NCBI GenBank assembly: GCA_026392015.1
Contig: JAPLCW010000174.1
Location: 1 to 64,000, forward strand
Length of the DNA: 64,000 nt
DNA from: Candidatus Auribacterota bacterium
GTDB taxonomy: Bacteria; Auribacterota; Tritonobacteria; UBA1439
Direction: 5' to 3'
Under the pieces are notes generated by a model. That model had not been told where the DNA came from. It did not search any database and worked only from the letters and a program-made list of their open reading frames with translations. Shown piece after piece: positions 6,869 to 64,000 of this stretch. Numbering within the stretch: the stretch's first letter is position 1; the number at the start of each line of letters is the position of its first letter. A program made the translations under genes and the position numbers.

Positions 6869-7276
6869 TTCATCAACCGGAACAGAAATCATACACGCTT
6901 TGCCCCCGATCGCCGGTGACCTGAACGCGCCGCCGGGCGGGAAGAAGCATTCGGGAAAGGAGAAATATAAATTGTGACAGACCGGCTCGATATGCATGGA
7001 AAGTCGGGCAGGGCAGGGAACATCTGTCTTTGTGCACCTGCGGAAAGAAAGAAAAATAAGGATAAGGCAAGGCCTCGGTCTCAGGGAGGCATGTCACTCC
7101 CGCCCCTGTATAACTGAGAATGTGCGAAAAAATAAGATTCCTGAACTTGGTTATTTGCATATCTATTGTGGGGGCTTGATTTATCAAGCCCTTTAGGGAG
7201 GGTCGGATGAATCCGACCCCTACAGCAATGCGCAAAACTATTTTTTTTCCACACCTTCTGAGGGGATACAGGATAA

Positions 7277-7537
7277 GTGAACAGAGCCAATAAACGCTGG
7301 CAGGTCTACATCATCCAATGCAAGGACGGGACTCTCTACACCGGCGTCACCAATAATCTCGCGCATCGCATCGATGCCCACAATTGTGGCAAGGGCTGCC
7401 GCTACACGAAATGCAGGCGGCCCGTGAAGCTGCTCCATGCCGCATCGTTCCCCGATAAATCAGCGGCTATGCGGCGCGAAGCAGAGATCAAGAAATGGAG
7501 CAGGAGAGAAAAGGAGGAGTTTCTGGGGAAGAAGTAA
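7277..7537 (+). CDS. Small GIY-YIG nuclease-superfamily protein
   Basis: WQVYIIQCKDGTLYTGVTNNLAHRIDAHN matches the GIY-YIG motif. Second copy of this family, again next to a kinase / response-regulator pair. Confidence 0.6.
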   Translation: MNRANKRWQVYIIQCKDGTLYTGVTNNLAHRIDAHNCGKGCRYTKCRRPVKLLHAASFPDKSAAMRREAEIKKWSRREKEEFLGKK

Positions 7538-7987
7538 CAATGTTTTTCTCCGGAGTTAACGCTGTCCCATTACCCCTAATCCCTAACTACTGACTACTAA
7601 CTACTGTTTCCCAGCTGAGACTTTAGTCGAAACTTGTAGCCGAGACTTTAGTCTCGGAGGAGACAGGCGGAATCCCTTATCGCATATTCATCACTGCTAT
7701 TGCCTATCGCTTCTCCCAGGCGAAGCTTCGCCAGTACACTGTTAAAGTAGTTTTTGCTGATATAAATGCCGTAAGCATTATGTCATTGCGAGGATCCCGC
7801 CGAGGCGGGAGACGAAGCAATCTTTTTTTATCTTTTAGCAACGAGATTGCTGCGCCCTTTGGGCTCGCAATGACAGGTTACCTCGTAAGAATTAACTTAA
7901 CAGTGTACTAGCTACTGCAGTACGATTTTCCCGCTCGCCTGAGAAACGCGTCTTCGCGGCCTTTGATCAACTTGCTTCGTAACTGCT

Positions 7988-8125
7988 CTTGAGCCAGAAT
8001 TCAGAAGACAGAATACAGAATTCAGGAGACAGGAGATAAACGTTTCCTTGAAATGCCGCTATTCTTAATTCTGGATTCTGTATTCTGTCTTTTCCATTCT
8101 GGCTCCTGACTTCTGACTACCTGAG
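7988..8125. repeat. MITE-like palindromic element, copy A
   Basis: Arms are made of degenerate CAGAATN / CAGGAGN heptamers around a core AGGAGATAAACGTTTCCTTGAAATG. The same element occurs inverted at ~34216-34372 and ~40478-40650. Confidence 0.8.
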
Positions 8126-8241
8126 TAGTTACCTTGCTTCTATTGAAAGCCCGGGATACTCGGGTGAAAAAGCTATTGCGTGAGGTGATGCTTCTGCTAC
8201 AATGAAACCGCATGAAAGAAGCGGGCAGGAGGGCATGAATA

Positions 8242-9393
8242 ATGAACTACAGGGATATTCTGGATCTAGCCTGTGCCGGTATCGGGGCGGTTGCTTTTAT
8301 TCTTCTCCTCGTGAAGCGCAGCGTGAAGGTTATCGAGCGCCGCGTCGCTCTGACTCTCCTCTCCATTCTCCTCACCACGCTTGCCTACCTTCTCTACAGC
8401 GGTTACCAGTACCGGGTCTCCCCTGATTTGCTGGCGTCGCTCATGATCATCGAACTTGGGGTTTTCGCCCGAATCTACGATTCGTACAGAACCTTCCGTA
8501 GCCTCTCGGGAACGCTGCGGAATCTCGGCAATATCTATATCTTTGCGGGCGTCGTCTGCCTGCTCTCACGGAGCACAGGTTTCTCCCCGCTCCTCTGGGC
8601 GCTCCCTGTAATCCTCTTCTCGCTCGGCTATTTCTTCATGAAGAAGAGAAGGGGACTCGGAAACCTCTGCAAGGGCCTGGGAGTGCTCATATCCGTCGCC
8701 TTTGTCGCCTCAATCCTCTACGACGCGCGCGCCGGGGCAATACCCGGGCAAGGCGCAGCGCTTCTCCGGGGACACCTGCTTCCAGACATTATGAATCCTT
8801 CCTTCGTTGAGGAGCTCAACGCACTTAACAAGAAATTATCCGTCGCAGACGCTGAAAAGGCGCGCCTCTCCGAGAAACTCATCCTAACGAAAAAGGAATC
8901 CGAGAAGCTGACACAAGAGAAGAATGCGATTGAGGGGAAACTCGCGGAGATGGGCAAGGCGCGCGCGAATGAATCCTCTGAGCGGGAGACGCTCAAGACC
9001 GAGAAACAGAAGCTCCAGGAGCTCCTCAATAAAGAGACGGCAGCCAGGAACGATGCCAAGCATAAACTCGAGGAAGCAAAGGTGGCGGGCAAAGAAGGCT
9101 TCACCGCGATTGAAGAGAAACTGAAGCTCGCGGCTGACAACCTCAAGAAGGTGATGGAAGAGAAAACAGCCCTCACCGCGGAACTTCAGTCCCTCAGGGC
9201 CGCCTCACCGATGGCAACGCCCGGCTCTCAATCTGTAGATGTGCAAGAGATGAAGAAGAGACTCGCGGACAGGGAAGGAGAGCTTGCCGCCGTCACCCTG
9301 GAGAGAGATAGATTAAAGAAGATTGTCGGAAAGATCGAAGACGCACTGCCGACCGGGATGCCCTCGCCACAAGTGCCGGGGGCGGGGAACTGA
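8242..9393 (+). CDS. Membrane-anchored protein with long C-terminal coiled coil (hypothetical)
   Basis: 4-5 N-terminal hydrophobic helices, then K/E-rich heptad-like sequence (LSEKLILTKKESEKLTQEKNAIEGKLAEMGK...). No recognised catalytic motif. Confidence 0.5.
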   Translation: MNYRDILDLACAGIGAVAFILLLVKRSVKVIERRVALTLLSILLTTLAYLLYSGYQYRVSPDLLASLMIIELGVFARIYDSYRTFRSLSGTLRNLGNIYIFAGVVCLLSRSTGFSPLLWALPVILFSLGYFFMKKRRGLGNLCKGLGVLISVAFVASILYDARAGAIPGQGAALLRGHLLPDIMNPSFVEELNALNKKLSVADAEKARLSEKLILTKKESEKLTQEKNAIEGKLAEMGKARANESSERETLKTEKQKLQELLNKETAARNDAKHKLEEAKVAGKEGFTAIEEKLKLAADNLKKVMEEKTALTAELQSLRAASPMATPGSQSVDVQEMKKRLADREGELAAVTLERDRLKKIVGKIEDALPTGMPSPQVPGAGN

Positions 9394-11002: not shown

Positions 11003-11770
11003 TTAATAATTGCAGTCACTGAGAATACCGGATCACAGTTTTATTCCTGTAGAACCGATTCCCCAAATGACCTCAAATATAATACTAGTATACTACATAT
11101 ATCCGGCATTTCCCATGTAAAGATCGGTCTCTGTGTAATGGGTCACTTATGGATACCCCCCAAGACTGACCCATTACGCTTAAAGATATGGCGGGCAGCC
11201 TATCTCCCCGGAAGGCAATTGAGCTTTTTCGCAGCATTAAGCTTGTTGAAGTATGGTTCGATACTATTGATGGACGGCGGATTTGTCTTCCGCGGATCAC
11301 GATGCCCGAACCTGACCATCAAGTAGTTCTGGAGCAGTTCAAATGGAATTTGCCCGAACAACCACCTCCGCGCATTTATACACGGAGGGAAGGTCATGTA
11401 AGAAATGTGTGGGAGATTCGAAGTTAAAATGCCCTCCTTTCCTATGAAAGCTGGGCTTCTATGCAAAATCTGCGAAAGTCGGGTTAGGATTGAACACGCA
11501 AGGTGAAGTCTTGCGAGTCGAAGTCCCTCCCCCATCCCCGCTCCCATCACTCCTATTGGATAGTGAACTTCGCTCTCACGTCGAGGAACGCATCCGCCCG
11601 CCCTGTAATCGGCTTCAAGGGGTCGAAGAACGCGAACGCCGCGACGACCTCGTACTACCCGACGGGCTTCACGTTCGGCCGGAGAGCGAGGGCGTCGAGC
11701 ATGAACCCGTCCGGGAGGATAACGACCGGCTCCGCGAGGGGCAGCATGGGGCAAATTGCCCAAGTTACGA

Positions 11771-15038: not shown

Positions 15039-16154
15039 TCAACGCCGAGAGAGGAGCATTCTCAGGAGCACGGAAGGGCGAAGGAGGAGCAGGGTGCGCG
15101 TGTTACACTCGTGCGTACAGACGCAGCGCTTCTCACGGCGCAACGCGACGAATTCCCTCGCCCGGGCGCCGGCCAGCAGTTTTTTAAGGTCAAACCCGAA
15201 ATCGCGGACATTCCCGAGAGAGCGATTGAACATCAGCTCGCACGGGAACACTTCTCCATCCTCGGAGAGGACTACCTCACGCTCCCCGGCCAGGCAGGGG
15301 GCGATGAACTTCCCCTCCCTCCAGACACGGGCGATGTAGCGAGTGCGGGCTTTGTTCATCCTGTCGCGCACGCGGCGCTTCAGGGCACGGGCGGAGTGGA
15401 GGGCCCTCTCGCCCTTCCCGCGATAGAGCGTGTCCAGTTTTTCGCAGAGCGCCGTGTAGATCTCCGGCGTCACATCAGGGGGCCGCGCCGCGGGGCCGCC
15501 GCCTCGCCAGAGGTTGAGTGTGTGCGAATCGGGATGAATCTCCTTGAACACAAAGTCGATGAGCCGGTCCAGTTCCCCCTGGTTCTCGCGCATGAGCGTT
15601 GTGATGACACCCACGTACAGATTCCCATACCTGCGCTGAAGATCCTGAGCGCCTGCGAGCGTGCGCAGCGCCCGCGCGTGGATGCCCGAGACGCCGCGGA
15701 GGCTGTCGTGGAGCTCGCCGAAGCCGTCCAGTGAGACCGAGAGACTGCACGAGAGATTTGGCGAGATCGCGCAGATGCGCTCTACCGCGCCGAGGATCTC
15801 CTCCGTCCTCAGACCGTTCGTCGGAATGGAGATATTACCGAACGATGTCTCCCTGAAATAGGCCTCCACGACCTCCGGCAGATCCCTCCGCAAGAACGGC
15901 TCACCGCCGCTCAGGAGGAGAAAAGGGAGCTTGCCGATGGAATGGGCGATCTTACGGATTTCATCCAGGGTGAGCTCGCGGGTGCGCCTGTTTACCGTAT
16001 AGAAGCAATGAGCGCAGCGCGCATCGCACGCAGCGGTGACAAAGTGCGTGAGCTGGAAGAGACCGCGGCCCGGAAGAAACGCCTTTCCAATCATGCCGAT
16101 GGCTCCCGTGAGCGGGTTAACAGACTTAAAATCCTTTTTCACATCCCTCCTCAC
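15039..16154 (-). CDS. Radical SAM protein with C-terminal Cys-rich (SPASM/twitch-like) region
   Basis: CDARCAHC (CxxxCxxC) cluster near the N-terminus, and a GGEPFL SAM-binding motif. C-terminal cysteines (PCLAGE, FPCELM, CVCTHEC). Confidence 0.75.
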   Translation of the reverse strand: MRRDVKKDFKSVNPLTGAIGMIGKAFLPGRGLFQLTHFVTAACDARCAHCFYTVNRRTRELTLDEIRKIAHSIGKLPFLLLSGGEPFLRRDLPEVVEAYFRETSFGNISIPTNGLRTEEILGAVERICAISPNLSCSLSVSLDGFGELHDSLRGVSGIHARALRTLAGAQDLQRRYGNLYVGVITTLMRENQGELDRLIDFVFKEIHPDSHTLNLWRGGGPAARPPDVTPEIYTALCEKLDTLYRGKGERALHSARALKRRVRDRMNKARTRYIARVWREGKFIAPCLAGEREVVLSEDGEVFPCELMFNRSLGNVRDFGFDLKKLLAGARAREFVALRREKRCVCTHECNTRTLLLLRPSVLLRMLLSRR

Positions 16155-16803
16155 CTCCCCCTTCGCGGGGGGAGGGAATTATATTTATTTTGCCACACAA
16201 AATGCAGGAGAAGCATTAACCTGATCTATTCACCAGCTTTTAATGTTTTAACCGCGGATTAAGCGGATTACGCTGATTTGCATTGTTTAATCCGCCCAAT
16301 CCGCGAAATCTGCGGTTTCATATGTTTGGCCGTTAAAATTGCTCTTTTATTCGTCTGCTGAATAATCCAGGCTAAGCTGCTCTATTCATCAACCCGAGAT
16401 TAGCATTATCCGAATATTCGCAACATATTGCATTGCAGGGGATTGATCCTTCGGCAAGCTCAGGACAAGTTTTATCAAGCCCGTTCTCAACCCGGGTTCG
16501 ATAAATCAAACCCCTACATTACGCAGATGAATAGTCCAAGCTAAACCTTATCCCCATCCTTCCTCGCCAAAGACGAGCGAGCGTGAGGCTTGTCCGCCTT
16601 GGGCGGAGGAAGGGTCAAGGCGGGGTGTTTGTTGCGAAGTATGCCATTCTTGCACTTCGACTACGCTCAGTGCAAATTCGAGCAGAAATCCAGATTCCAT
16701 ACAGGATCCCCGCCTGCCTGCGCGAAGCCGCTTCGGCATAGGCAGGCTTCCTCGGGGATGACAATTGAACTGAACACCACCACAAGACTGACGTATTACT
16801 ACA

Positions 16804-17723: not shown

Positions 17724-17857
17724 TATTCTGTATTCTGTATTCTGTATTCTGTATTCTGTATTCTGTATTCTGTATTCTGTATTCTGTATTCTGTATTCTG
17801 TATTCTGTATTCTGTATTCTGTATTCTGTATTCTGTATTCTGTATTCTGTATTCTGT
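17724..17857. repeat. Perfect heptanucleotide tandem tract (TATTCTG)n, ~19 copies
   Basis: Read directly in the sequence. It lies in the intergenic region between the divergent GT2 (minus) and GT39-like (plus) genes. Confidence 0.9.
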
Positions 17858-17870
17858 ATACGCCCTGCCA

Positions 17871-19427
17871 TTGAGAGTTAGATCAGTTGTTGCGATCCTC
17901 CTCCTCGCATTCGGTCTGAGGCTTATTTTCGTATTCTTTCCCGCGGAGCTGAAACCGTTCTCCGACATGCAGGAGTACCATGAGAAGGCATGCATGATCC
18001 TCGATACGGGCAGCTACGGGCCTTCGTCCCGGCCCCCGCTCTATCCGGTCTTTCTCGCGTCCGTATATCGCATCTTCGGTATCCATTCCTTCGCTGTGAG
18101 GCTAATCCAGGCGCTGATGGGCACCGCCGTGTGCCTCTTCACATATTTAATCGCGCTCCGGTTGTGGGGGGAGCGCGCTGCGTGGATGAGCGGGCTCCTT
18201 GTCGCCTGCTACCCAAGCCTCGTCGTGTACACTGGCCTCCTCATGTCGGAGAATCTTTTCATTTTCCTGCTCATGGCCTCGCTCTGGATCCTCCTCTGTC
18301 CGGGGCGGAGGGGAGCTTTTGCCTGCGTCGCCGCAGGCATACTCCTCGGCGTTGCCTGCCTGACCAGATCAATTCTCATCGGATTTATCCCGATCGCGGC
18401 GCTCTGGCTGTGGCGGAAACGCAGCGGGAGAGAGGGGATGGTATGCCTTCTCGGAGCGCTCCTTGCCATTGCCCCCTGGACAATAAGAAACTATCGCTAC
18501 TATCAGCGGTTCATCCCGGTAGATCTCTACGGCGGCTATAACTTCCTTATCGGAAATACCCCGTACGCCACAGGGCGGCAGGAGCTCGGGACGCTGCGAA
18601 CACTCGAGGCCGAATATTGGAAGAACTGGTATATAACACCCGAGAAAAAAGGAGAGGGCGCGCCTCCGGCTAATGAATGGATTATGATCATAGATCCGGA
18701 CGGTTCCGCGCTGGGTTACCGGGAGGGGATTAAGTTCATAGCAGCCCATCCATTGAAATTCCTGATCCTTGGCATGAGAAAAATGGGTAACCTGTACGAT
18801 CTCGAGATCAGAGACCTCTCATGGGCGTATTCCAAAAACTACTTCGGGGAGGTGCCCCGGCTGATTCTCATTCCGGTGGCGGCGGCAATCATTGTCGCCT
18901 TTCCATTGCTCGCGATCCTTGCCCTCTGCGGCATACTCTGCAACGGAAAGGAAACATATGATGTAAGGGGACAGTCTCAGAGTAGGAAAAACAACCCCCT
19001 CCTCGCCCTCCCCTCGGCAAGCTCCCTTCGACTTCGCTCAGGATCTTCGACAGGACAAGCTCCCCTTCGCAGGGGGAGGGGATATGATTCGAGCCCCTCA
19101 GAAACTGAACAATTGTCACATAATAACGGCGGCGCATGGGCGCTGCTCATCTTTACCCTGCTCTATTTTTCCGCCGCGTGCTTCCTCACCTTCGGCGAAA
19201 GCAGGTTCCACCTCCCCCTCGTACCGGTCCTGGCACTGTTCGCCGGCGCTCTCGCGACATGCGCACCGCACCCCCTGTCCTCTGAGCCGGTCCGGCTGAA
19301 GAGATTGCTTCTTGTCTTACTGCTCGGCCTCCTCCTTATAGACTGGGGACTGAGCCTTATGGAGAATCGGCAGCGTCTCGGCATCGTGCTCGCCCCGGGA
19401 GGCAATCTCACGGAGATCAGCTATTGA
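17871..19427 (+). CDS. Polytopic membrane glycosyltransferase, GT39/PMT_2 (ArnT-like) family
   Basis: Multiple TM helices with the family pattern (PLYPVFLASVYRIFG...LIQALMGTAVCLFTYLIALRLWG). Start tentatively at the in-frame TTG at 17871, just downstream of the repeat tract. An in-frame repeat-derived insert sits at ~18985-19095. Confidence 0.6.
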   Translation: MRVRSVVAILLLAFGLRLIFVFFPAELKPFSDMQEYHEKACMILDTGSYGPSSRPPLYPVFLASVYRIFGIHSFAVRLIQALMGTAVCLFTYLIALRLWGERAAWMSGLLVACYPSLVVYTGLLMSENLFIFLLMASLWILLCPGRRGAFACVAAGILLGVACLTRSILIGFIPIAALWLWRKRSGREGMVCLLGALLAIAPWTIRNYRYYQRFIPVDLYGGYNFLIGNTPYATGRQELGTLRTLEAEYWKNWYITPEKKGEGAPPANEWIMIIDPDGSALGYREGIKFIAAHPLKFLILGMRKMGNLYDLEIRDLSWAYSKNYFGEVPRLILIPVAAAIIVAFPLLAILALCGILCNGKETYDVRGQSQSRKNNPLLALPSASSLRLRSGSSTGQAPLRRGRGYDSSPSETEQLSHNNGGAWALLIFTLLYFSAACFLTFGESRFHLPLVPVLALFAGALATCAPHPLSSEPVRLKRLLLVLLLGLLLIDWGLSLMENRQRLGIVLAPGGNLTEISY

Positions 19428-19560
19428 CCTCTCCGCCGACCAGAAACTAATGCATTAGTTACAGGCGGATGTGATTCTTTTTTCTCGCAGGGGGGCCTTA
19501 ACCTGGTCTATTCATCAACTCGAGATCAGGGCGATCTCCATATCTGATAACACATTGAAT

Positions 19561-19696
19561 TGTAGGGGCTTGATCCTTCGGCAAGGTCCCTTCGACTGAG
19601 TTTATACTGAGTGTAGCCGAAGTGCTCAGGGTCTTCGACAGGACAAGTTTTATCAAGCCCGTTTTTAACGCGGGTTCGATGAATCGAACCCCTACA
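19561..19696. repeat. Palindromic element family TGTAGGGG...CCCCTACA (representative copy)
   Basis: TGTAGGGGCTTGATCC...GGACAAGTTTTATCAAGCCC...GGGTTCGATGAATCGAACCCCTACA. Other copies at ~7166-7226, 16435-16519, 30238-30311 and 30714-30793, and a fragment inside the CDS at ~18985-19095. Confidence 0.8.
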
Positions 19697-20124
19697 ATAG
19701 GGAGATGAATAAAAGAGCTATTTTAACAGCCCACCATATGTAACCGCAGATTACGCGCCTGCCTGCCGGCAGGGATTGGGCGGATTACACAATGCGAATC
19801 CGCGTAATCCGCGGTTAGAACATTAGGTTCATGTCCAAAAAAGTTGCCCATTCATACGAGGAGAGTAGTCATCCCCGCGAAAGCGGGGATCCAGAAATGC
19901 AGCTTTCTAAGCTGGATTCCTGCTTCGCATAATAGAGGGATTACGCGAGGTGATGTCAGCGGGGTGCCGGTGCAAAAAAGTATAAAATCATACAATCGCA
20001 TATTTCCAGTTGACTTCCGGAAGCGGATAGCGTATCTTGAGCGGGTTTGCTGGGCATATATCTGCCGAGTCAACTCGTTCAGGCGCCGGCGCGTTGTTAC
20101 GGTGCCAGCGAAAGGGGAGACATT

Positions 20125-20826: not shown

Positions 20827-21117
20827 ATGTCAGAGGCACTGGGAATGATCGAAACGAGAGGGTTTGCAGCCATGGTTGAGGCATCGGATGCCATGGTCAA
20901 GGCCGCAAAGGTCGAGCTGGTGAGCTACGAGAAGATCGGCGGCGGTTACGTCACCGCTATCGTCCGCGGCGATGTGGCGGCCGTGCGCGCGGCGGTTGAA
21001 GCAGGGGCGCGTGGCGCCGAGAAGGTGGGAGAGCTAGTATCCGTACACGTCATACCGAGACCGCACGTCAATGTCGATGCGGTGCTGCCGCTCGGAAGGC
21101 CCACCGGGAAGGAATGA
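20827..21117 (+). CDS. BMC-H hexameric shell protein (PduA/EutM/CcmK-like)
   Basis: Canonical [29 protein letters not shown]...[13 protein letters not shown]...VHVIPRPH. Confidence 0.9.
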
Positions 21118-21222
21118 CAAATACCAAGTGACAAATGACAGAACATATTTGTTTTGTCATTTAGATTTTGTCATTTGTCATTCATTTAGTGTCTATTGTG
21201 GTTGGTGGACAAGGAGGATTCG

Positions 21223-21522: not shown

Positions 21523-21653
21523 TGCCTCAGCCACAGGGTGATCATACCCCCCACCCTGACCCTCCCCTCAAAGGGGGGAGGGGAATAAGGTTTGATTGCA
21601 TTCCGAGACTGAAGCATTGCGAGGAACGAGCCTGACGGCTCATGGAGTAGCGC

Positions 21654-23107: not shown

Positions 23108-23460
23108 CCACTGGGGACACTGAAGCAACATCAATAGATTCAAGGTGGCTATATTTTTTAGATTCCCTTGCATTTTGTGTGCGTGCACTGCATTCTCCTC
23201 CCCCCTTGAGGGGGAGGAAGAAGGTGGGGGGTATTGCAAAGGCAGATATGCTACCCATTACATTGGATGGAGTTACAATGAGTATCCGTTATCCATTCCT
23301 CACCCCCACCCTTACCCTCCCCCTTCGGAGGGGGGGGATAAGAAATTTGCCCACACAAAGTGGAAGAGAACCCTTTTTAAATCAGCGTAATCCGCGGTTC
23401 GAACCGTTATCGTAACGAAGTTAGTCTCTGTTTCAGTGCGCTCAGTGTCCTCAGTGGTTA
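23108..23460. repeat. MITE-like element with terminal inverted repeats, inside the BMC operon
   Basis: AACCACTGGGGACACTGAAGC at the left end and its reverse complement GCGCTCAGTGTCCTCAGTGGTTA at the right end. The interior holds GC-rich UUCG-loop hairpins and a CCGCGGATT motif. Confidence 0.6.
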
Positions 23461-24880: not shown

Positions 24881-24953
24881 GGATTACAGCGCGTAACTGC
24901 GGATTGGATGGACTACCGTAAAGAATCCGCCTAATCCGCGCAATCCGCGGTTA
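24881..24953. repeat. Palindromic element family TTAACCGCGGATTACGC (representative copy)
   Basis: Units of GGATTN3GCG with inverted symmetry and ends like TTAACCGCGGATT / AATCCGCGGTTAA. Further copies at ~16250-16320, 19741-19818, 23385-23412, 25828-25860, 40425-40455, 41685-41730, 41975-42009 and 63855-63985. Confidence 0.8.
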
Positions 24954-24978
24954 AAACATTAAAGGTGTCTGAACAGTC

Positions 24979-25527: not shown

Positions 25528-25737
25528 AAAGATGACAAAGCATATCTAACCTGGATTATTCACGAGGCGCCCGTAGTAAAAGGGACATAACCACTGAGGC
25601 AATGAATATACTGAATGTTTGGACGCAGATTTGCGCAGATGAACGCAGATTAACAAAAGAAGCAGATTGAACCCTTGAGGTTTTAACCGCAAGCTGTATT
25701 TGTATCTGCGTGTTCTGTTGGGCGGATTAAAGAGGCA

Positions 25738-25826
25738 CATGCAACCACGGATGAACACGGATGAACACCGAACAGCAGAAGGAGCATTTGAACCGTGTTA
25801 ATCCGTGTTCATCCGTGGTTCAAAAT
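25738..25826. repeat. Palindromic element family CACGGATGAACAC / GTGTTCATCCGTG (representative copy)
   Basis: AACCACGGATGAACACGGATGAACAC...GTGTTAATCCGTGTTCATCCGTGGTT. Related copies at ~30470-30500, 30607-30640, 51127-51150, 53990-54140 and 60150-60220. Confidence 0.75.
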
Positions 25827-25882
25827 TTTTCAATCCGCGCAATCCGCGGTTAAGACTTTAATATTTCGTCTTTTATCCAATT

Positions 25883-30146: not shown

Positions 30147-31383
30147 CCGCTCATTATACTCATTCCTTTCGCACTACAGACTCCCCCTCAAAATCGGGCA
30201 GTGGTTCAATTCGACCAAGCATATAGTTTCTCTACGATGTAGGGGCGTGATGAACTTGTCCTGAGCGAAGTCGAAGGATCACGCCCGGGTTCGATAAATC
30301 GAACCCCTACAAATCAACGCTCCCCAGAATGACCCACTACCCATAATCGCTTATGTCTGGCAAGCAAAGATGGTAGGCCTGAATGGCGGATAACAAATCA
30401 AAACGTTGACCTGGTGTAATGCGTCAGTTACGCTGGGGGCTGCTGACTTTGTCCGGACATGCATATTTTTATTCTAACCACGGATAAACAATGTGGGAGC
30501 GGCTTCCAGCCGCGATAATCGGGGCGAGGACGCACCTCCCACAGTATGCTCTTATCTTGATAGCTTGATAGCTCGATAGCTAAATTGCTCTCCTCCCCCC
30601 TCCCACAATTGAACTACGTGAGACAATCCGTGTTCATCCGTAATTTATATACTCCTGTCAAACTGCCCCATGACTATCTGGTGGATGACATTTAATAAGG
30701 AGTATTTCTCGTCGTAGGGGCTTAATTTATCACGCCCGCCAAACGGATCGGATAAAACTTGTCCTGAGCCTGCCGAAGGATCCAACCCCTACATTATTCG
30801 CCGTTTCGAGTGTAGAATGGTCCAGAAGAAAGCAGAAAACACCAAGAATTGTATACAAACTGCATACAAAGTATACATACTTGACACAATAGAATGTATA
30901 CTGAGTATGCAAGGCCATTTCTCGCTAGCTAATATTTCGCAAAATACAGTTTAATCCTATAGATAACTACCTAGCATTAAAGGAGTTGCATTTGATAAAA
31001 TAAATATCACCAAAACCTACAAATTGGCATGAAATTTGCTACCTTCCTAGGGTATGAGAGTGATACCCACTTATTCAGAAGCTGACTTGGGCAAAAGAAC
31101 TCCAATGCTCCCGATAATTCAAAGGGCGTCATATAGCGGGCATAAGGGTTTGAGTACAGTAGTGGGTTGCGTATTGACTGATGCTGATAACTGTTGTATT
31201 ACATTTAATAAGCGCCATGCAATATGTAACTGCAATCCAGCCTTGGCGACAGAAGCCATCCATCAACAGCACTCGAGGGATTGCCTCGTCCTCCCGCACC
31301 TTGCAATAGCATAATAGCGCAGCTCATCTTTTATCCTGCGCATACATTGTAATCGGGACTTGTCTCAGGAAAGGAAGAAGCAA

Positions 31384-34176: not shown

Positions 34177-34215
34177 CTTCCGGTATTCTGCAGTGATATA
34201 TCTGGTAACCACTCA

Positions 34216-34372
34216 GATAGTCAGGATGCAGAAGCCAGGAGCCAGAATGGAAAAGCAAGAATCCAGAATACAGAATTAAGAATAACGGCATTTCAAGGAA
34301 ACGTTTATCTCCTGTCTCCTGAATTCTGACTCCTGAATTCTGACTCCTGAATTCTGGCTTCTAAATTCTTGC
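34216..34372. repeat. MITE-like palindromic element, copy B (inverted relative to copy A)
   Basis: Same core GGAAACGTTTATCTCCT with CTGAATTCTGACTCCTG heptamer arms. Confidence 0.8.
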
Positions 34373-34469
34373 TCCTCGCAGTCACGACATCGCCCTATTT
34401 ATTGAGTGAAAATTGTGGCTTCTGCGCTTATAATCTCTAGATATCAACTTTTTAGGGCGGTGATATACT

Positions 34470-40428: not shown

Positions 40429-40477
40429 CCGCGGATTGGGCGGATGAAAACATTAAATCTTATTAACTGCTCGGGTG

Positions 40478-40650
40478 GTCAGAAGACAGAATCCAGGAGT
40501 CAGAATCCAGAATGGAAAAGCAAGAATACAGAATCCGGAATACAGAATTAAGAATAACGACATTTCAAGGAAACGTTTATCTCCTGTCTCCTGAATTCTG
40601 TATTCTGTCTTCTGAATTCTGGCTCCTGACTCCTGAATTCTGACTCCTGA
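40478..40650. repeat. MITE-like palindromic element, copy C
   Basis: Same core and heptamer arms as copies A and B. Confidence 0.8.
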
Positions 40651-40675
40651 GCAGTTACAAATCTTAAAGGATAAT

Positions 40676-41656: not shown

Positions 41657-42059
41657 GCCCCCGCCCGATCCGGTTATATCAACTATTAATGTTTTTAACC
41701 GCGGATTATGCTGATTACGCGGATTCTTGTTTGGGCTCTTGCAGGATTTTTGTGAATAAGTAGATGGGAGGACGCTACATAACATCCTATTCGCAATTAA
41801 GATATTGCTGAGCCGCCATCCCGTATGCCCTCTCCCCTCCGAAGGGGAGAGGCATGGTGAGGGGTGAATCCGCATGGACCACCTTCACACCCCCACCCTC
41901 GCCCTCCCCCTTCGGAGGGGGAGGGGTATGGCCCACGTCCTTTCTTCACAAAAATCTGGCTTGAGCCCTTGTTTGTAATCCGCCCAATCCGCGAAATCCG
42001 CGGTTTCATGCCTTGATCTGCTGAAATTACCTATGTATATTTCTGAATAATAACCCGGA

Positions 42060-49730: not shown

Positions 49731-49924
49731 GCCGACCTCCTTTTTTATAGAAAGTAGTTAGTAGCTAGTAGTTAGGGATAACGTTCCCTTGTGCGGCCTT
49801 CGGCTGCAGCTACATGCTCCACCGTGGATGGATCCGTCTTCGGCAGACCAAACCAAAACGCCCATGCAAAAATACACCGAGGTTAAGAAACCAGAACCTA
49901 ACTACCAACTACTAGCTACTTCTT

Positions 49925-50943: not shown

Positions 50944-51229
50944 GGCAACTCCGCGTGTCAGTGCTATTATTGCATATTATCATGGCTTGACAAGCATTTC
51001 TGTTGCCTCGCGCGACTCCCTTTGCCGCTCAGGTGAGATCTCCTGTCATTTTAGCAAGGCTTTTTGCTTTCAAAATTCTTAACTCGTTGTTTCGCAATAT
51101 ATTGTTGTATCGTTTAAGCTTAATGTAGGACACAGATGAACACAGTAATGCCAATCATGCCGGGGGCTGCTGACTTTGTCCGTACATACAGATTTCCTAT
51201 GATCACAAACAACCGTTGGATTTGTAACT

Positions 51230-53053: not shown

Positions 53054-53057
53054 CGCA

Positions 53058-53705: not shown

Positions 53706-54251
53706 CGTAGTCCTCCATGATAGAGTATGCAGTTATAGCCACTATCCGCCTAATTATTCCATACTCTATCATGACTCCGCTACCTGTCAACCCCTTTCTG
53801 TAAAAAAGCCAACCCTCTTCCGATTGGGACGATTGAACCGATCACGATACCAATCAGTCACTTACGACAATAAATCCCTTCTTCGTGCTTTGCCGTCAAA
53901 CTCTTGCTTCAATCCTCTGATGATAGAGTATGAAACTGGCATTCGTCGTAACTCCTTGATAATCAACCACCCAACGGTTGTTTGTGATCATAGCGGATTT
54001 TTATTATAACCACGGATAAACACGGATTAACATAGAATCACGTAACACAATCTGTGTTCATCCCTGCCGCCGGGCAGGCGGGGTTATCTGTGTTCATCTG
54101 TGATGATCGTCTAAGCTTAATGCGCGACACAGATGAACACAGATCCCGGAATGCCGGAAATTCAAACTAAAAATCCCCCGCTTGGCATTAAGTAGTACGC
54201 GGTAAGCTATACGTAAAATGCTTACAACTTATTGATTACAACTTACGGCTG

Positions 54252-54385
54252 GTAAGGGGTCACTTATGGGTGGTACATTGCTGAATATGTCATTCCTGCG
54301 AAAGCAGGAATCCAGGTTTCATAATGGATCCCCGCTTTCGCGGGGATGACAAGCGAAATGGATACCACCCATAAGTGACCCCTTA
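54252..54385. repeat. Palindromic ~135-bp element (family GGGGTCACTTATGG...), copy 1
   Basis: Ends TAAGGGGTCACTTATGGGTGGTA / TACCACCCATAAGTGACCCCTTAC, with inner hairpins GTCATTCCTGCGAAAGCAGGAATCCA and ATCCCCGCTTTCGCGGGGATGAC. A second copy is at 59722-59870. A solo-end copy is at ~11140-11180 and a diverged copy at ~16560-16800. Confidence 0.8.
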
Positions 54386-54543
54386 CTACGGCTGGCTGAA
54401 TTTGGTTGCGGTGAAAGCCTGGCTGTGCTATTTTCAAGTAGATGCTATGAGCAAACTCGGGCGATTGATACTAGTTACACTGCTTCTCTTGCACGCCGCT
54501 TTTGCGCTCGCCGGGTGTCAATCAACCCGGCAGAAGTGGGAAG

Positions 54544-55563: not shown

Positions 55564-57115
55564 GTTTCTGCCTGCACAGCTCCCGGTGCCTGATAATGAC
55601 CGAATCATCCAGATAGGCCGGACTCAATTGCGACGCCTTCCCATAGGCGTCGAGCGCCTTCCCAAATTCGCCCCGTTGCTCATAGATGAGCCCCATCCCG
55701 ATATATACGCTGGCGGCATACACAATATCCTTCGTCAAGTCCATCGCCTTCTGGAGCTCGACAAGAGCCTCATCGTTCCTACCGGTGAGCCGGTACACGT
55801 TGGCGAGGTTATTGTGCGCGGATGCGAAATTCGGGCGCAGCTCCAGTGCCTTCCTTGCGGCATCCTCGGCATCTTGATACATGCCGATCCGCGCATAGGC
55901 GATGCTGAGGTTATTGTATGCGTCGGCGTTCGAGGGATTGCGCGCGAGCACCGATTTCCAGAGAGAGAAGCTGCTTCCCCACACGGTATTCCTGGAAATG
56001 GTAAGGAGCATAAGACAGGTGATCATGGCGGTGATGGCGAGAATAGTTCCCCTCCCCACGAAAGCGGAACGCCGGCCCGACATCCAGGAACCCGCGAGGA
56101 GGGAAAGGGCCGCGACCGGAAGGTAAAGGTATCTGTCCGCCTTGACCACATTGGTGGGGATGATCTGAAGCACGGGAAGAAGAGAGAGTACGGCCCACAG
56201 GGTACAGAAGGAGAAAATCGGAGAGCGTTTTCGCGCCGCCAGGGCACCTGCCAGAAGTGCGAGCCAGATGAGAAGCGGGAATACACAGCTCATCTCTCCC
56301 AGCCGGGAAGGCAGTGAGACGACGTAGAGCGAGTTCAGGCGCACCGGGATCAACAACATCCTGAGGTAATCGCCCATCACCTTGAGCACCGCGAGGAAAG
56401 TCATGAATGCGCTTCCACCATGGTAAGGCAGGCTCGTCTCATTATGTGGATCAAGGAAAACAGTGGCGAGCGCGGTGATGAGCAGAGGGAGGACATAGGG
56501 AAGTTTGTTCCGGATCGATTCCGCGACTCTGCTCCTGCGGGGACCAAGCAGCAGGTCGTAAAGTACCAGTGCGAGCGGGAGCGTGACAGTGAACGGTTTG
56601 GCCCAGAGCGCGCAGAGATAGAAAAGCGCGCTGAGCCAGATGAATCGCGCGCCGCCGGACCTTGAGAAGCGGATGTAGGAGAGAAAGGCGAGGAGGTAGA
56701 AGAGCATCCCGAGTCCGTCCTTTCGGCTCGAGAGCCAGGCGACCGATTCCACGTGCAGGGGGTGAAGCAGGAAGATCGCTGCCGCAAGAAAGCCTGCGCG
56801 CGAATCCCTCAGCAGGCCGAGGCATATGTAAAAAAACGTGAGCACGCTGAGGGCGTAGAGCATGATGTCGGTGAGGTGATATCCAATTGGGTTGAACCCC
56901 CAGTAAAGATGATCCAGTGCGTGCGAGAAGACGGTCAGCGGAGGGTAACTGATATGGAAGTTCGCGAGCATGAAGAGCAGATCAAGGGATCGGATCCCCT
57001 TGTTCTTCACGATAAGATGCTCGTCGTCCCAGTTGGTGAAGAAGTTCCCGGGTATGTTGGCGTATGCCACACACACCAGCATCACCAGCGCAATAATCGT
57101 GACAACCTTCCTCAT
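55535..57115 (-). CDS. TMTC-like membrane protein: DUF1736/PMT_2-like polytopic domain with C-terminal TPR repeats
   Basis: N-terminal NWDDEHLI motif region, about 11 TM helices, and 4-5 TPR repeats at the C-terminus (AYNNLSIAYARIGMYQDAEDAARKALEL...). Confidence 0.7.
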   Translation of the reverse strand: MRKVVTIIALVMLVCVAYANIPGNFFTNWDDEHLIVKNKGIRSLDLLFMLANFHISYPPLTVFSHALDHLYWGFNPIGYHLTDIMLYALSVLTFFYICLGLLRDSRAGFLAAAIFLLHPLHVESVAWLSSRKDGLGMLFYLLAFLSYIRFSRSGGARFIWLSALFYLCALWAKPFTVTLPLALVLYDLLLGPRRSRVAESIRNKLPYVLPLLITALATVFLDPHNETSLPYHGGSAFMTFLAVLKVMGDYLRMLLIPVRLNSLYVVSLPSRLGEMSCVFPLLIWLALLAGALAARKRSPIFSFCTLWAVLSLLPVLQIIPTNVVKADRYLYLPVAALSLLAGSWMSGRRSAFVGRGTILAITAMITCLMLLTISRNTVWGSSFSLWKSVLARNPSNADAYNNLSIAYARIGMYQDAEDAARKALELRPNFASAHNNLANVYRLTGRNDEALVELQKAMDLTKDIVYAASVYIGMGLIYEQRGEFGKALDAYGKASQLSPAYLDDSVIIRHRELCRQKLRKQNRLLE

Positions 57116-57117
57116 TT

Positions 57118-57941
57118 GGTGTCAGAACTCCCTTATTCATTGCACGCAAAAGTATTATGACTTAATTATTACCTGATCGGGGGCGGCCCGGTGGTTTTTT
57201 CTCTGTCCTTAACACGTCCTTCTGAAGTCCCTCCAGATAGCTATCAGAACTAAAATGGCTCTGGCCGCCAAGGCTTTTCCTGATAAGAGCCGCTTTGCTT
57301 TCCTCTAGCGGAACCGAAACGATCCTTTTGTAGTTCTCAATTCTCTCTGCCATTGTTCGCCCCAGACTCAAGAAAGTTGGATTATCTTCCTTATCGATCA
57401 ATTCATCTTCCTCCATTATTACGTTCGCGCGATAGCTTGAATAATGGTATTTACCCGGATGATCTACCAGACCGGCCCGCACCGGATTTTGCTCGATGTA
57501 GCGCATGAGCGCCAAAAAATAGTCATCAGTACTGACAATGGGACTCTTAAACCTTCCTTGCCAGACATGGCCGGAGGATTTGTATTTATGGTGATAGCGA
57601 CGCGTATGCGCAATGGTTATTGCCTTCATGATATCGCTCACGGTACCCATGGAAGAAGTCTTGATCAAAAGATGAATATGATTTTTCATAAGGCAATAGG
57701 CGAAGATCTTAAAATTAAATTTATGCTTATATCTTTTTAGGATGCCAAGGTAGTGCAGATAATCGTGGTCTTCCAGAAATACATCCTGACGATTATTGCC
57801 GCGATTGAGGATGTGATGATTCAGATTCGGCAGATGTATTCTGATGGGGCGTCCCATACACTAAGCATATCAAAAAAGGCGCCAGAGCAATAATTAATTT
57901 ATATTGCATTGCGGCACAAGCAATTATCGAGTTCTGACACC
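57118..57941. mobile_element. RAYT / IS200-like unit bounded by imperfect inverted repeats
   Basis: GGTGTCAGAACTC at 57118-57130 and GAGTTCTGACACC at 57929-57941, plus about 40 bp of further partial symmetry, enclose the Y1 transposase gene. Confidence 0.55.
57162..57857 (-). CDS. REP-associated tyrosine transposase (RAYT; IS200/IS605-like Y1 HUH transposase)
   Basis: HUH motif NHIHLLI; GHVWQGRFKS; Tyr region YHYSSYRA. 231 aa. Confidence 0.8.
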   Translation of the reverse strand: MGRPIRIHLPNLNHHILNRGNNRQDVFLEDHDYLHYLGILKRYKHKFNFKIFAYCLMKNHIHLLIKTSSMGTVSDIMKAITIAHTRRYHHKYKSSGHVWQGRFKSPIVSTDDYFLALMRYIEQNPVRAGLVDHPGKYHYSSYRANVIMEEDELIDKEDNPTFLSLGRTMAERIENYKRIVSVPLEESKAALIRKSLGGQSHFSSDSYLEGLQKDVLRTEKKPPGRPRSGNN

Positions 57942-57950
57942 AAATATACG

Positions 57951-59671: not shown

Positions 59672-59678
59672 TGCGCTT

Positions 59679-59706
59679 ATTATACGACATCACCATTACG
59701 GGTCAA
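59679..59706 (-). promoter_or_regulatory. Sigma70-type promoter for the riboswitch transcript
   Basis: Minus-strand TTGACC, 16-nt spacer, TATAAT, with predicted start ~7 nt downstream. Confidence 0.6.
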
Positions 59707-60203
59707 CATGTTTTGTACTAAGGACGTAAGGGGTCACTTATGGGGGGTACATTGCTGAATATGTCATTCCTGCGAAAGCAGGAATCCAGATTTCATAGTG
59801 GATCCCCGCTTTCGCGGGGATGACAAGTGAAAGGGCTACCCCCCAAGACTGACCCATTACCTAAGGACCATCCCCAATTTCGATAAAAATAGCTGCGCAA
59901 AATAGTTTCTCACCACGAAGCACACGAAGGGCATGAAGAAGAGACAGCCTGGGAACCAACGAATTCCACTATGTTATGAGCCAGTCCGTAAGTGTATAGA
60001 CACGTCATTGCGAGGAGCAAGGCGACGAAGCAATCTCTTCTCCTTCTGTCCTTGTGCGACAGGAGATTGCTTCGCTCCACTCGCAATGACTTATTGCAGA
60101 ATCATCGATATTGCAATGGACTGGTTAGTAATTGCCTTCGTGGTGAAACCGCTAAACACAGATGAACACTGAATCACGTGCGACAATCCGTGTTCATCGG
60201 CGT

Positions 60204-60539
60204 TCATCCGTGGTTTATATTCCCTTGCGTGTCTGCTGCCTTCCCCTGTTTTGCTTTTTTTCTGCGCGCCATCGCGCCGATGCCACACGCAAGCCCGAAC
60301 GCGATAACCGTACCCGCCACTCCGGCGATGCGCGTCGCGGTGCGTCCGCTCTGGATTCCGGGCCAGGCATAGTCGGGGATCGGCGCCGCAATCACCGGCT
60401 TCCCCCCGCCCCTGTAAAGAAAGCCGTGGTCGCCCGCGATCTTTTCAAGCCCGTCCGGCCACGGGGATGCGAAGGGGGAAAGCACAAGCGCGAGCAGCAG
60501 CGCTGCACCAAGGCCGATGAGCATATCCCGGAGTTTCAT
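60204..60539 (-). CDS. PDGLE-domain membrane protein (CbiN-like partner of CbiM)
   Basis: Contains the SPWPDGLE motif and two TM helices. Overlaps the cbiM stop. Confidence 0.65.
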   Translation of the reverse strand: MKLRDMLIGLGAALLLALVLSPFASPWPDGLEKIAGDHGFLYRGGGKPVIAAPIPDYAWPGIQSGRTATRIAGVAGTVIAFGLACGIGAMARRKKAKQGKAADTQGNINHG

Positions 60540-61180: not shown

Positions 61181-61265
61181 CTTGACCTCAGTTGTAAGTT
61201 GTACGCAGTAAGTTGTACAGCTATTTTCGGCTTATAACTTATAGCTTATGGCTTACTGCTGCTTT

Positions 61266-62204: not shown

Positions 62205-62205
62205 G

Positions 62206-62622
62206 CTATTCGATTCCCTTTCCGGTAGAACTCATGGTGACCTGAAGATGCTTTACCCCGCGGCATGCGCCCAGCTGATCGGCAAGTGCCTTTATCTTCC
62301 CCGGCACTCCCCGCACCACAACCACCTCGAGACAATTGCATTGGTCAAGGTGGATATGCTGGGAGGACAGTATTTCAGTATAGTAATGATGCTGAATGTC
62401 GAGAAGCCTTGACGTGAGCTCGCGCTGATGGTGGTTGTAGATCATGGTGATCGTACCCACTACCTCCTTCCCCTCCGCCCATTCCTGCACAATGAGCTTT
62501 TCGCGCACGATGTCCGCCAATGCCTTCGAACGATTGCCGTATCCCTTCCGGCGCATGAGCCGGTCGAACTTGTCCAGGAGCCCCTTTTCAAGCGATACGC
62601 CGAAACGCACAATGCCCGCCAT
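62206..62622 (-). CDS. nikR: Nickel-responsive transcriptional regulator NikR
   Basis: Ribbon-helix-helix N-terminus (RFGVSLEKGLLDKFD...GYGNRSKALADIVRE) and C-terminal metal-binding domain with His cluster (HHQRE...HH...HIHLD...C). Confidence 0.85.
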   Translation of the reverse strand: MAGIVRFGVSLEKGLLDKFDRLMRRKGYGNRSKALADIVREKLIVQEWAEGKEVVGTITMIYNHHQRELTSRLLDIQHHYYTEILSSQHIHLDQCNCLEVVVVRGVPGKIKALADQLGACRGVKHLQVTMSSTGKGIE

Positions 62623-62836
62623 CGCGCCACCTCCATTGTGTTACTATTTTAATAATTGTAGCACCACGCATTGCCAAGTCAACATTTATTTGAAAATATT
62701 TTAAAATAGTTGAACGTGCGGGAGGAAGCTACCCGAGCCGCAAAAAGACATGCCTTTGTGTGCAACATCCTCACGCCACTTTTATACGAGCGACCGCTCC
62801 GACTCGGAAGATGCGGCAATAATGCATACTGTGATA

Positions 62837-63709
62837 TTACTTTGCCTTGACCCCCGCCGCCTTTACCACAAAGCTGCCTATCGTAACCCCGAGCGCATCG
62901 GCGATGACCGGGCACTTGGCGCGTAGAAGAAAAAATATTTTCTTGCCATCGTACGAGTTTAACGATTCGTAGTTTCCCTGACCCTTGGCCAAAATCAGGT
63001 CCGCGCTCCGGAACACCCTGCGGAACTCCTTTGAGCAGTAGTCGAGGATGACCCCCGGGGTCGCCGAACCGGTTGAAACCACCTCCGCGATATCCTTCAT
63101 ACCGACCCGCTCCGCGTCACGGAGCGTCGCGTCGTTGATGATCGGCCCTCCCCGTACGGAAAATGTCCTCTTGAGGGATGGGTACTGAGCGGCAATTGTT
63201 TCCAGGAGCAGCTTGTCCAGCACGATCTCGCCGGCGTTGTCGCCGATATAGAGCAGGGATTTCGCGGCGGAGAGGCTGCTCTTGAATGTCGCGCTCTCAT
63301 CCATCTGGAGTCCCTTCTCCAGGACACTCCTGAGGGCCTCCTTCAAATCTCCCTTGACCCCCACGCCGAAATCGACCACATTGGCCGCGACCGCCAGCTT
63401 CATCGCGGTGTCAAGCGGGGATGCCGACTTGGATACCGTCTCCTTCGCCCATGGATAGCACTCGAGCGCCATCCCATCGCTGCGCTCCTTTATCTGGAGA
63501 TACGGATCTGCGCATCCCGTGGCTTTGTTCACAGCCCCATAGACGGAGTAGGCAATCTGCGGCGGGGGAAAACGGTAGTCGATCTTCGAGAGGACTTTCA
63601 TCACACGCTTGAGCACACGCGCATGAAGCGCCTCGTCATCGCTTACAATCCGGGCAACCTCCAGAGCCTGCCGCGTGAGGCAGGGCTGACACTCAAGGGA
63701 GCTTCTCAT
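62837..63709 (-). CDS. DUF89 (ARMT1-like damage-control phosphatase/methyltransferase) family protein
   Basis: YIGDNAGEIVLD and AKGQGNYE motifs. Confidence 0.55.
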   Translation of the reverse strand: MRSSLECQPCLTRQALEVARIVSDDEALHARVLKRVMKVLSKIDYRFPPPQIAYSVYGAVNKATGCADPYLQIKERSDGMALECYPWAKETVSKSASPLDTAMKLAVAANVVDFGVGVKGDLKEALRSVLEKGLQMDESATFKSSLSAAKSLLYIGDNAGEIVLDKLLLETIAAQYPSLKRTFSVRGGPIINDATLRDAERVGMKDIAEVVSTGSATPGVILDYCSKEFRRVFRSADLILAKGQGNYESLNSYDGKKIFFLLRAKCPVIADALGVTIGSFVVKAAGVKAK

Positions 63710-64000
63710 TGCTCGTCTCCTCCTTATGATATCCTCTTATATGAACACGCGGCAGCCGTGTCAATGACATTCTGGGCCGGGGCGAACAAATATCATTCAT
63801 GAAAAACAAATCGCCACTTTATCCGGTTTATCCGATGGTTATATTGTTCTATTCAACCGCGGATTACGCAGATGTAAAAACTGCCCGAGGTTTAGGGCGG
63901 AAAGAATAGCGACATTCCTCGAAGCTTCCGCTTTACGCTATCAACCGCAGTTCAATCCGCCCAATCCGCGTAATCTGCGGTTAAATCCTTTAGCCATCGG

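Follow-up and report, generated by a model that had tools for sequence, protein, structure and literature searches.

A mosaic of small hairpin repeats and miniature transposable elements in the intergenic DNA of a Candidatus Auribacterota contig

Small non-coding repeats of bacteria have been described in several forms. The GTAG-tagged dimer of repetitive extragenic palindromes (REPs), defined by Di Nocera et al. (2013) and comparable to the REPIN (Bertels and Rainey, 2011), belongs to a class usually tied to REP-associated tyrosine transposases (RAYTs). Related tyrosine transposases of the TIRYT type are bounded by long terminal inverted repeats, the ends of which often read GGGGWSAS (Di Nocera et al., 2013), and in some genomes these ends have been published as moderately abundant repeat families. 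For hairpins with the SRM/CGTC motif (NTS) a connection with GIY-YIG nucleases of the Ssn family has been described (Di Nocera, 2013; Chenal et al., 2025), and such motifs lie near 71% of the ssnA homologues according to the Ssn paper. Among cut-and-paste elements, the IS66-family member ISPa75 makes target duplications of 8 bp. Here we analyse the short repeats in one stretch of a Candidatus Auribacterota genome, positions 1 to 64,000 of contig JAPLCW010000174.1 (assembly GCA_026392015.1), referred to below as the window. The phylum, also named Candidatus Aureabacteria, was already reported to possess bacterial microcompartments (BMCs); a word search of a Candidatus Auribacterota genome paper returned no mention of repeats, transposases or palindromes.

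The repeats of the window are a mosaic of several already-known kinds of hairpin repeat, represented by new members from a little-studied phylum, and a less-described type, hairpins with arms of tandem 7- or 10-nt units, is present as well. We consider it likely that small non-coding repeats of several unrelated classes settled in the intergenic DNA and became nested into mosaics. The arrangement recalls the BIMEs of E. coli and the NIMEs of Neisseria, where different short modules are likewise joined and nested between genes; the phylum and the sequences are different. Elements were curated over positions 6869-64000 (57.1 kb). The 41 short repeats there amount to 4.3 kb, which is 7.6% of this sequence and 40% of its intergenic part, and are found in 21 of the 31 intergenic gaps of at least 60 bp. 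Distinct 14-mers seen at least twice on either strand number 529, compared with 20-37 in five third-order Markov simulations. Eleven of 12 representative elements fold well beyond shuffled controls (z -3.0 to -12.3), the f hairpin being weaker (z -2.2).

An earlier note, written from the sequence alone, had proposed seven recurrent motif families (a to g) and suggested the fold prediction just given. All seven recur where it had placed them, and the 14-mer excess is large. Its copy numbers stand for e (two) and for f (at least six claimed, seven counted); of the heptamer MITE (miniature inverted-repeat transposable element) g there are three copies plus a perfect TATTCTG array of 19 units. For a, given as at least nine copies, we counted 11 arms at eight sites, and for c, given as at least six inverted pairs, 12 arms (at most one mismatch) at five sites. 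For b, said to have at least six copies, only five elements were counted, at 7167, 16434, 19559, 30238 and 30713. The d family, given as at least four copies including a solo-end form, comprises two full 135-bp copies, one internal fragment and a 43-bp form with both ends fused, which is the supposed solo end. The repeats are indeed dispersed, over more than 20 separate intergenic sites, rather than duplicated at a single locus. As the note had said, they enter one coding sequence, where an f element lies in frame within a GT39 gene, and a BMC operon at about 20.1-26.7 kb (BMC shell genes, EutN, aldehyde dehydrogenase, an RnfC-like protein and a class II aldolase), in which five spacers carry elements. 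An "exceptional" density could not be shown, however: repeated 12-mers, a crude and non-discriminating measure, occur at 4.3-16.2 per kb in the window and 1.6-19.7 per kb in other, unrelated metagenome loci, although spacers are about 2.8 times those of syntenic relatives (see below). The note had not listed the heptamer-arm hairpins at 7580, 21109, 47540, 47677, 49752 and 61190, an IS1182-like transposase, a 2.8-kb TA-flanked element and a small GIY-YIG gene.

Families d and g are true MITEs. The 135-bp copy d1 (54252..54386) has perfect 24-bp inverted ends GTAAGGGGTCACTTATGGGTGGTA, an 8-bp target duplication TACGGCTG and a predicted fold of -88.9 kcal/mol (z -12.3), and its interior is an inverted pair of hairpins tagged CGTC/TGTC. 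Copy d2 (59726..59860), again 135 bp and 92% identical to d1, is bordered by a different 8-bp duplication, CTAAGGAC. The 43-bp derivative d3 (11135..11177) has fused inverted ends and no target duplication, and a fragment at 16681..16790, without an inverted end, is related to the inner right part of d at 75-81% identity. The three g elements have arms of heptamers. Copy g1 (7979..8132; z -9.4) has the ends GTAACTGCTC.../...GAGTAGTTAC, the target duplication CTTGCTTC and, read on the + strand, the conserved core GATAAACGTTTCCTTGAAATG; it is inverted relative to g2 (34205..34385), which has a degenerate right end and no target duplication, and to g3 (40463..40658), which is flanked by the duplication AAATCTTA. 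Perfect 8-bp target duplications thus border four of the six d and g copies (d1, d2, g1 and g3); any one of them would arise by chance about once in 65,000 cases.

The inverted ends of both families take the form GTAA...TTAC, d starting with GTAAGGGGTCAC and g with GTAACTGCTC, and those of the IS66 examples compared also start with GTAA (GTAAGCGTCC, GTAACCGTCC). Since GTAA ends and 8-bp duplications are found together in IS66, an IS66-type DDE transposase acting in trans and encoded outside the window is most likely the mobiliser of d and g; a parent IS66 would be expected to end in GTAAGGGGTCAC or GTAACTGCTCAGG. With their length of 135-196 bp and their lack of coding capacity both families resemble IS66-derived MITEs, from which they differ in the tandem heptamers of the g arms and the REP-like hairpin cargo of d. 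A search of a genome collection with the d end gave a single match, in Candidatus Hydrogenedens, which we took as chance because the likeness was limited to the 18-nt pattern itself, and a scan of viral contigs with the g core gave none; neither sequence was found beyond this lineage in these respective collections. Copy d2 lies 42 bp upstream of a cobalamin riboswitch (59495-59684, minus strand, 82.8 bits), which itself stands upstream of an unannotated 465-residue gene (57951-59348) beside a CbiM/NikR cluster.

The inner hairpins of d place a second known kind of repeat inside these MITEs. The published CGTC-type REP, or SRM, has a CGTC or TGTC tag, an 8-9-bp stem starting with AT, a loop of 4-5 nt and a CCA tail; the inner d hairpin TGTC-ATCCCCGCG-AAA-GCGGGGAT-CCA agrees with it in tag, stem, loop and tail, and so does a free hairpin at 19867..19894 (+ strand; AGTCATCCCCGCGAAAGCGGGGATCCAG), which is followed by a degenerate inverted partner. 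There are three strict SRM matches in total (19867, 54324 and 59798) vs 0.4 expected in shuffles. Partner hairpins of the form TGTCATTCCTGCGAAAGCAGGAATCCAG fall outside the strict pattern and differ from the Neisseria NTS (CGTCATTCCCGCG...GCGGGAATC) by one stem pair changed on both sides, from C-G to T-A. Records of Azospirillum, Neisseria, Photobacterium and Sphingopyxis also match the inner d hairpins. The pair is like Neisseria dRS3/NTS, the partner of SsnA, in tag, stem, loop and tail and in the inverted arrangement with tags outward, but differs in being the cargo of a MITE that has both inverted ends and a target duplication. Family e seems to be akin: e1 (7730..7912) is an inverted hairpin pair GTCATTGCGAG...GCAATC (7782-7874) within a larger inverted repeat, and e2 (59979..60126; pair at 60004-60090; z -5.1) is CGTC-tagged. 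The e hairpins, one of which bears the CGTC tag, show the GTC...C frame of the CGTC type and resemble CGTC-tagged REPs in this respect. In a plasmid collection e-like modules were seen in Calothrix, Methylocystis, Methylosinus and Halomonas records; the e motif, searched as a text string in the literature, returned no papers.

Family b represents the GTAG class. Element b1 (7167..7224; z -4.7) is an inverted GTAG-REP hairpin pair, TGTGGGGGCTTGAT..ATCAAGCCC / GGGTCGGAT..ATCCGACCCCTACA; b4 (30238..30311; z -4.4) and b5 (30713..30793; CGTAGGGG...CCCCTACA) are further dimers. In all five copies one side ends in TGTAGGGG, TGTGGGGG, TGCAGGGG or CGTAGGGG and the other in CCCCTACA, and all five are inverted pairs with outward tags and a spacing of 20-100 bp, as is proper to REP dimers. 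The stems of 9 bp and loops of 2-4 nt fall within the definition, which asks for a terminal GTAG tag or a degenerate variant of it beside a hairpin with a stem of 6-13 bp and a short loop. Exact copies of the 20-mer GGACAAGTTTTATCAAGCCC number just two. Judged by this anatomy, b can be assigned to the GTAG-tagged REP dimers, equivalent to the REPIN, and a Y1/HUH transposase gene is found nearby as well; unlike in REPIN systems, the RAYT-like gene of the window is not flanked by b, and two b copies lie inside shells with separate inverted ends. A single b-type REP was found in one viral contig.

The shells connect b to the next group. Copy b2 (16434-16518) is enclosed in a shell at 16373..16543 with the inverted ends TAAGCTGCTCTATTCA / TGAATAGTCCAAGCTA, b3 (19559-19698) in a shell of the same type at 19499..19721, and a1 (16217..16374; z -4.7) consists of a 79-nt decamer-arm hairpin (16245-16323) in a shell with the ends TAACCTGATCTATTCA / TGAATAATCCAGGCTA. 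The inverted ends of all three have the form TA-RSYTG-NN-YTATTCA, and the shells meet in TA dinucleotides that they have in common, which may reflect a TA target duplication. The earlier note had kept a and c apart. Both are real, but they have common AACCRCGGAT termini, their arms consist of 10-nt units repeated two or three times in tandem, and intermediate forms exist; we therefore treat them as one superfamily. Its a-type members are, besides a1, the hairpin a2 (19722..19826; z -4.4); the solo right arm a3 (23374..23401) in the Aldedh-RnfC spacer of the BMC operon; a4 (24890..24963; z -3.0) between the RnfC-like gene and a tandem BMC-domain shell gene (24979-25527); the solo left arm a6 (40425..40456), which overlaps the stop of gene 37915-40428; the long a7 (41684..42015), with a further inverted repeat and two f hairpins (41825-41866, 41888-41929) between its arms; and the hairpin a8 (63850..63990). 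The composite a5/c1 (25616..25861; z -8.8) has a-type arms outside and a near-perfect c hairpin inside (25743-25820, 96% complementary). Among the c-type members, c2 (30430..30645) has the arms AACCACGGATAAAC ... GTGTTCATCCGTA and the conserved leader GGGCTGCTGACTTTGTCCG, c4 (53991..54144) is a cluster of five c arms, c5 (60148..60215) is a c hairpin, and c3 (51109..51199), a half hairpin with leader, is interrupted by the 2.8-kb TA-flanked element. This element (51200-53990; 2,791 bp), inserted in the c-type repeat with perfect 20-bp inverted ends TGATCACAAACAACCGTTGG and TA on both sides, encodes a 215-residue protein with an IS630-like helix-turn-helix region and a 607-residue protein with a faint IS256-like match, and may be an unusual autonomous transposon.

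Arms of the a type also occur at gene ends in four viral contigs (L102-L105, IMG/VR) that otherwise have no similarity to the window, in arrays such as AATCCGCGTAATCCGCGTAATCCGCGGTT; one of these arrays adjoins a (GCGGATT)x6 heptamer array. Heptamers form the arms of hairpins in the window too. One with the unit TGACAAA (21109..21186; z -7.4) stands between the BMC shell gene 20827-21117 and EutN, another (49752..49921) has the unit AGTAGTT, and a third (61190..61261; z -4.2) the units AAGTTGT / GCTTATN. The TATTCTG unit of the g arms further forms the perfect array (TATTCTG) x19.4 at 17724..17859, between a GT2 gene on the minus strand and the divergent GT39 gene, the start of which (17871) was inferred from a 100%-identical NCBI protein. 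Given its unit length, which three does not divide, and its position in a shared promoter region, the array looks like a slipped-strand switch for surface glycosylation. Such tandem heptamer arrays may be likened to the short tandemly repeated repetitive (STRR) sequences of cyanobacteria, again with the difference of phylum and sequence.

Family f is a G+C-rich hairpin module that is often nested in a elements. Apart from the two copies within a7, it overlaps the end of a radical SAM gene (16139..16176), lies in frame inside the GT39 gene (19036..19085, + strand), and is present in the EutN-Aldedh spacer (21546..21582) and, as two hairpins, in the Aldedh-RnfC spacer (23190..23338). In GT39 it accounts for a 54-residue insertion that is missing from homologues at 53-60% identity. 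The GT39 of an 86%-identical relative has the insertion minus nine residues (LRLRSGSST), which are encoded by a 27-nt sub-module of the f element; nested repeat insertions are therefore tolerated in frame in a loop of this membrane protein. Modules of e and f were also met in a few unrelated metagenome loci.

Comparison with relatives showed that many copies are mobile or at least polymorphic. Against L004, a 12.3-kb JGI contig of about 90% identity that is syntenic with 47968-63969, the window carries a 253-bp stretch composed of d1 and ~118 bp (54144-54396), a 538-bp block with d2, e2 and c5 (59709-60246), 108 bp more of the loop of the 49752 heptamer hairpin (absent part 49778-49896), the whole heptamer hairpin at 61190-61261 and roughly 3 kb with two genes (~51.1-54.0 kb), the 2.8-kb TA-flanked element included, all of which L004 lacks. 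L004 has in turn an 86-bp f-type insertion of its own and, at the site equivalent to a8, a different a/shell variant; the large differences between the two are confined to intergenic DNA. The contig L090, which covers the GT39 gene at 86%, has no counterpart of 19487-19702 with b3, and an a-type shell follows directly after the gene. In the distant syntenic relatives L098 (GT39 53% identical) and L097 (an Aureabacteria metagenome-assembled genome, 50%) the order from radical SAM gene to BMC operon to ABC transporter is kept and the spacers are compact, with a total between shared genes of 1095 bp in L098 vs 3035 bp in the window (~2.8-fold); the repeats are therefore gains of this lineage. The a family itself is older: a-type arms and shell ends are present at either end of the L098 contig, and the Aldedh-RnfC spacer of L098 holds a decamer-arm hairpin (z -3.1). 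Finally, a-type copies of the window (16216-16374), L004 (11-97) and L090 (1336-1408) are 97.7-98.6% identical, in comparison with 86-91% for the orthologous genes and flanks around them, which would fit recent spread, exchange between lineages or strong constraint.

Taken together, we envisage the following origin of the mosaic. An IS66-family DDE transposase encoded outside the window would cut and paste d and g, and b would be copied by a RAYT encoded elsewhere. Pairs of CGTC-type hairpins may have spread in part as riders within the d MITE, decamer-arm hairpins of the a/c type and b dimers would sit in shells with TA-bordered inverted ends, and the f and e hairpins may be short modules carried in larger elements. 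The remark of the earlier note that mobilising enzymes are not evident was thus too pessimistic for some families, for which an enzyme class can be named (IS66-like for d and g, RAYT class for b, Ssn class for the inner hairpins of d).

Several points weigh against this explanation. The window contains no IS66 transposase as a parent of d and g, no RAYT flanked by b and no clear Ssn gene, so that every mobiliser had to be inferred. Target duplications are lacking at g2 and d3. Because d1 and d2 are part of larger window-specific blocks, no clean empty site is available for d alone. The TA borders of the a/b shells may perhaps be just part of the inverted ends, and the 98% identity of a copies within flanks of 86-91% fits selection or gene conversion equally well. 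Moreover, the evidence comes from one 57-kb stretch of the source genome.

A bolder version of this explanation can be formulated, which we regard as speculative and rather unlikely. REP-like hairpins would spread largely as passengers, the CGTC pairs in d and the GTAG pairs and decamer hairpins in TA-bordered shells, and, separately, the hairpins with tandem 7- or 10-nt arms may be a distinct undescribed class with its own way of forming. Such tandem-arm hairpins are found throughout this clade, and unrelated viral contigs carry them too. If true, the proposal would provide a DDE-transposase route for repeats that have been described as lacking a dedicated transposase.

The hairpins might instead be mainly functional regulatory structures under selection, serving as transcript stabilisers, processing sites, terminators or protein-binding sites. 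Hairpins in five spacers of one BMC operon are in line with such a role, as are the different decamer-arm hairpin that the distant relative L098 has in the same Aldedh-RnfC spacer, the a-type copies that are more conserved than their neighbouring genes, and published work suggesting that many REPs act as RNA elements. However, three scans for terminator-like sites gave no enrichment (24 vs 19.4, 16 vs 17.8 and 23 vs 16.0), few of the sites overlap repeats and most lack a T-run, and a general terminator role is not supported. Presence and absence of the repeats differ among close relatives, target duplications and inverted ends indicate insertion, and for the spacers between the BMC and EutN genes in L098 and L097 the predicted folds are weak (z -1.8). 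At the gathering score of Rfam the cobalamin riboswitch was the sole curated family matched over the window, in which no tRNA genes were found either. On balance, we judge selection for regulatory function to be an unlikely main cause of the repeats.

For the CGTC-type hairpins (the inner part of d, the hairpin at 19867 and perhaps e) a narrower alternative would be a Neisseria-like Ssn system, with these hairpins as substrates of the GIY-YIG protein encoded at 7277-7537. This single-domain protein of 86 residues is encoded between a b element and heptamer/e repeats, with e1 245 bp downstream; together with the excess of strict SRM matches and the published proximity of such motifs to ssnA homologues, this would speak for a partnership. 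The protein, however, is closest to the YazA type, with 47% identity to B. subtilis YazA, and matches no NCBIfam model. YazA-type proteins are presumably those of the UPF0213 type. No SRM was detected within 2.5 kb at any of six homologue loci from diverse bacteria, nor an NTS within 1.5 kb of its only match in a Neisseria gonorrhoeae chromosome, which for that reason is probably not ssnA. Ssn is, in addition, a nuclease not shown to copy repeats. A role of 7277-7537 as the Ssn (cd10448) partner of these hairpins is thus not supported, and such a system in the window seems improbable.

The RAYT-like gene of the window (57162-57857) was a further candidate mobiliser. The earlier note had pointed out that it has its own inverted repeats and that its flanks match none of the families, and we could substantiate both: the unit (57114..57945, minus strand) is framed by an imperfect inverted repeat of 57 nt, the 17-nt tips of which, ATTTGGTGTCAGAACTC, are perfect, and the 15-mer TTGGTGTCAGAACTC is confined to the two flanks. 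The protein matches Pfam Y1_Tnp with 66 bits and NCBIfam REP_Tyr_transpos with 76.1 bits, under the cut-off of 80; H60, H62 and Y120, i.e., the HUH motif and the catalytic tyrosine, are invariant across 33 homologues, and the best solved relative is E. coli TnpA-REP (4er8). Homologues with as little as 37% identity are still flanked by the core G[GT]GTCAGAACT, as a rule at a distance of ~53 nt on the upstream side and 20-50 nt on the downstream side. Homologue ends GGGGTCAG fit the GGGGWSAS motif published for some TIRYT ends, and the window end GGTGTCAG is one mismatch away. The gene is not flanked by abundant REPs or REPINs; with its RAYT-like Y1 transposase between long inverted repeats that have no relation to REPs, it corresponds to the TIRYT/TIRtron arrangement, and we assign it to the TIRYT type on these features, the differences being the one mismatch and the lack of a dispersed family of ends in the 64 kb. 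It lies between the same genes in L004, with the same ends, and appears to be vertically inherited. The spread of the families described here is probably not its work.

It could nevertheless be argued that this gene mobilises at least one family, most plausibly g. The g arms repeat GGAGTCAGAATTC, which is identical at 11 of 13 positions to the RAYT end GGTGTCAGAACTC; at a 63%-identical homologue (L007 10727-10809) an 83-nt TGACACC/TGGCACC heptamer array starts directly at the end motif on the downstream side; in other homologues the upstream side shows partial copies of this motif, two or three in tandem; and moderately abundant TIRYT ends are on record in some genomes. About 1.4 matches with at most two mismatches to the 13-mer are, by our estimate, expected in the window by chance, and the exact end motif was absent away from the RAYT flanks both in the window and in homologue loci of 10-20 kb. 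Besides, g has GTAA ends and 8-bp target duplications. To our knowledge, HUH/Y1 transposases (IS200/IS605 family) make no such duplications. Because of the target duplications of g and the undispersed end motif, we did not adopt g as the cognate repeat of this RAYT, and mobilisation of any family by it is very unlikely.

Independent assemblies bear on the integrity of the repeats. In run SRR20698648, two Logan contigs match the window at 100% identity for 5.3 and 4.5 kb, repeats included. One begins within d1. The first 86 nt of the other cannot be aligned with the neighbouring window sequence, and 36 of them correspond to the a1 region, 3.7 kb upstream, which suggests an alternative junction through an a-type repeat. 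That the repeats are assembly artefacts, or duplications confined to one stretch, might be suspected of a single 64-kb stretch from a metagenome-assembled genome, but is hardly credible in view of these contigs and this junction, the more than 20 separate intergenic sites, and related families in the ~90% relative, the relative with the 53%-identical GT39 and unrelated viral contigs.

Further features of the window lie outside these families. An IS1182-family transposase gene at 13747-14758 is probably split into two reading frames, with a hairpin at 14918-14961. The adjacent paralogues at 11771-13258, which have Lcl C-terminal domains and stretches of 80-88% identity, are an ordinary tandem duplication. 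Positions 1-6868 have a G+C content of 41-51%, compared with 51-62% for most of the rest, hold a 1149-residue gene and are free of the repeat families; this segment may have been acquired recently.

Such repeats fragment short-read assemblies, give rise to spurious small genes and alter promoters as well as the spacers within operons. In the 57-kb stretch of this member of the Candidatus Auribacterota they make up 40% of the intergenic DNA, the spacers are about three-fold longer than those of relatives, and one repeat has entered a membrane glycosyltransferase. Our understanding of REPs or MITEs is not changed by these data, which add new families and a useful test case; the CGTC pair inside a target-duplicated MITE hints at a route by which hairpins said to lack a transposase of their own may spread.

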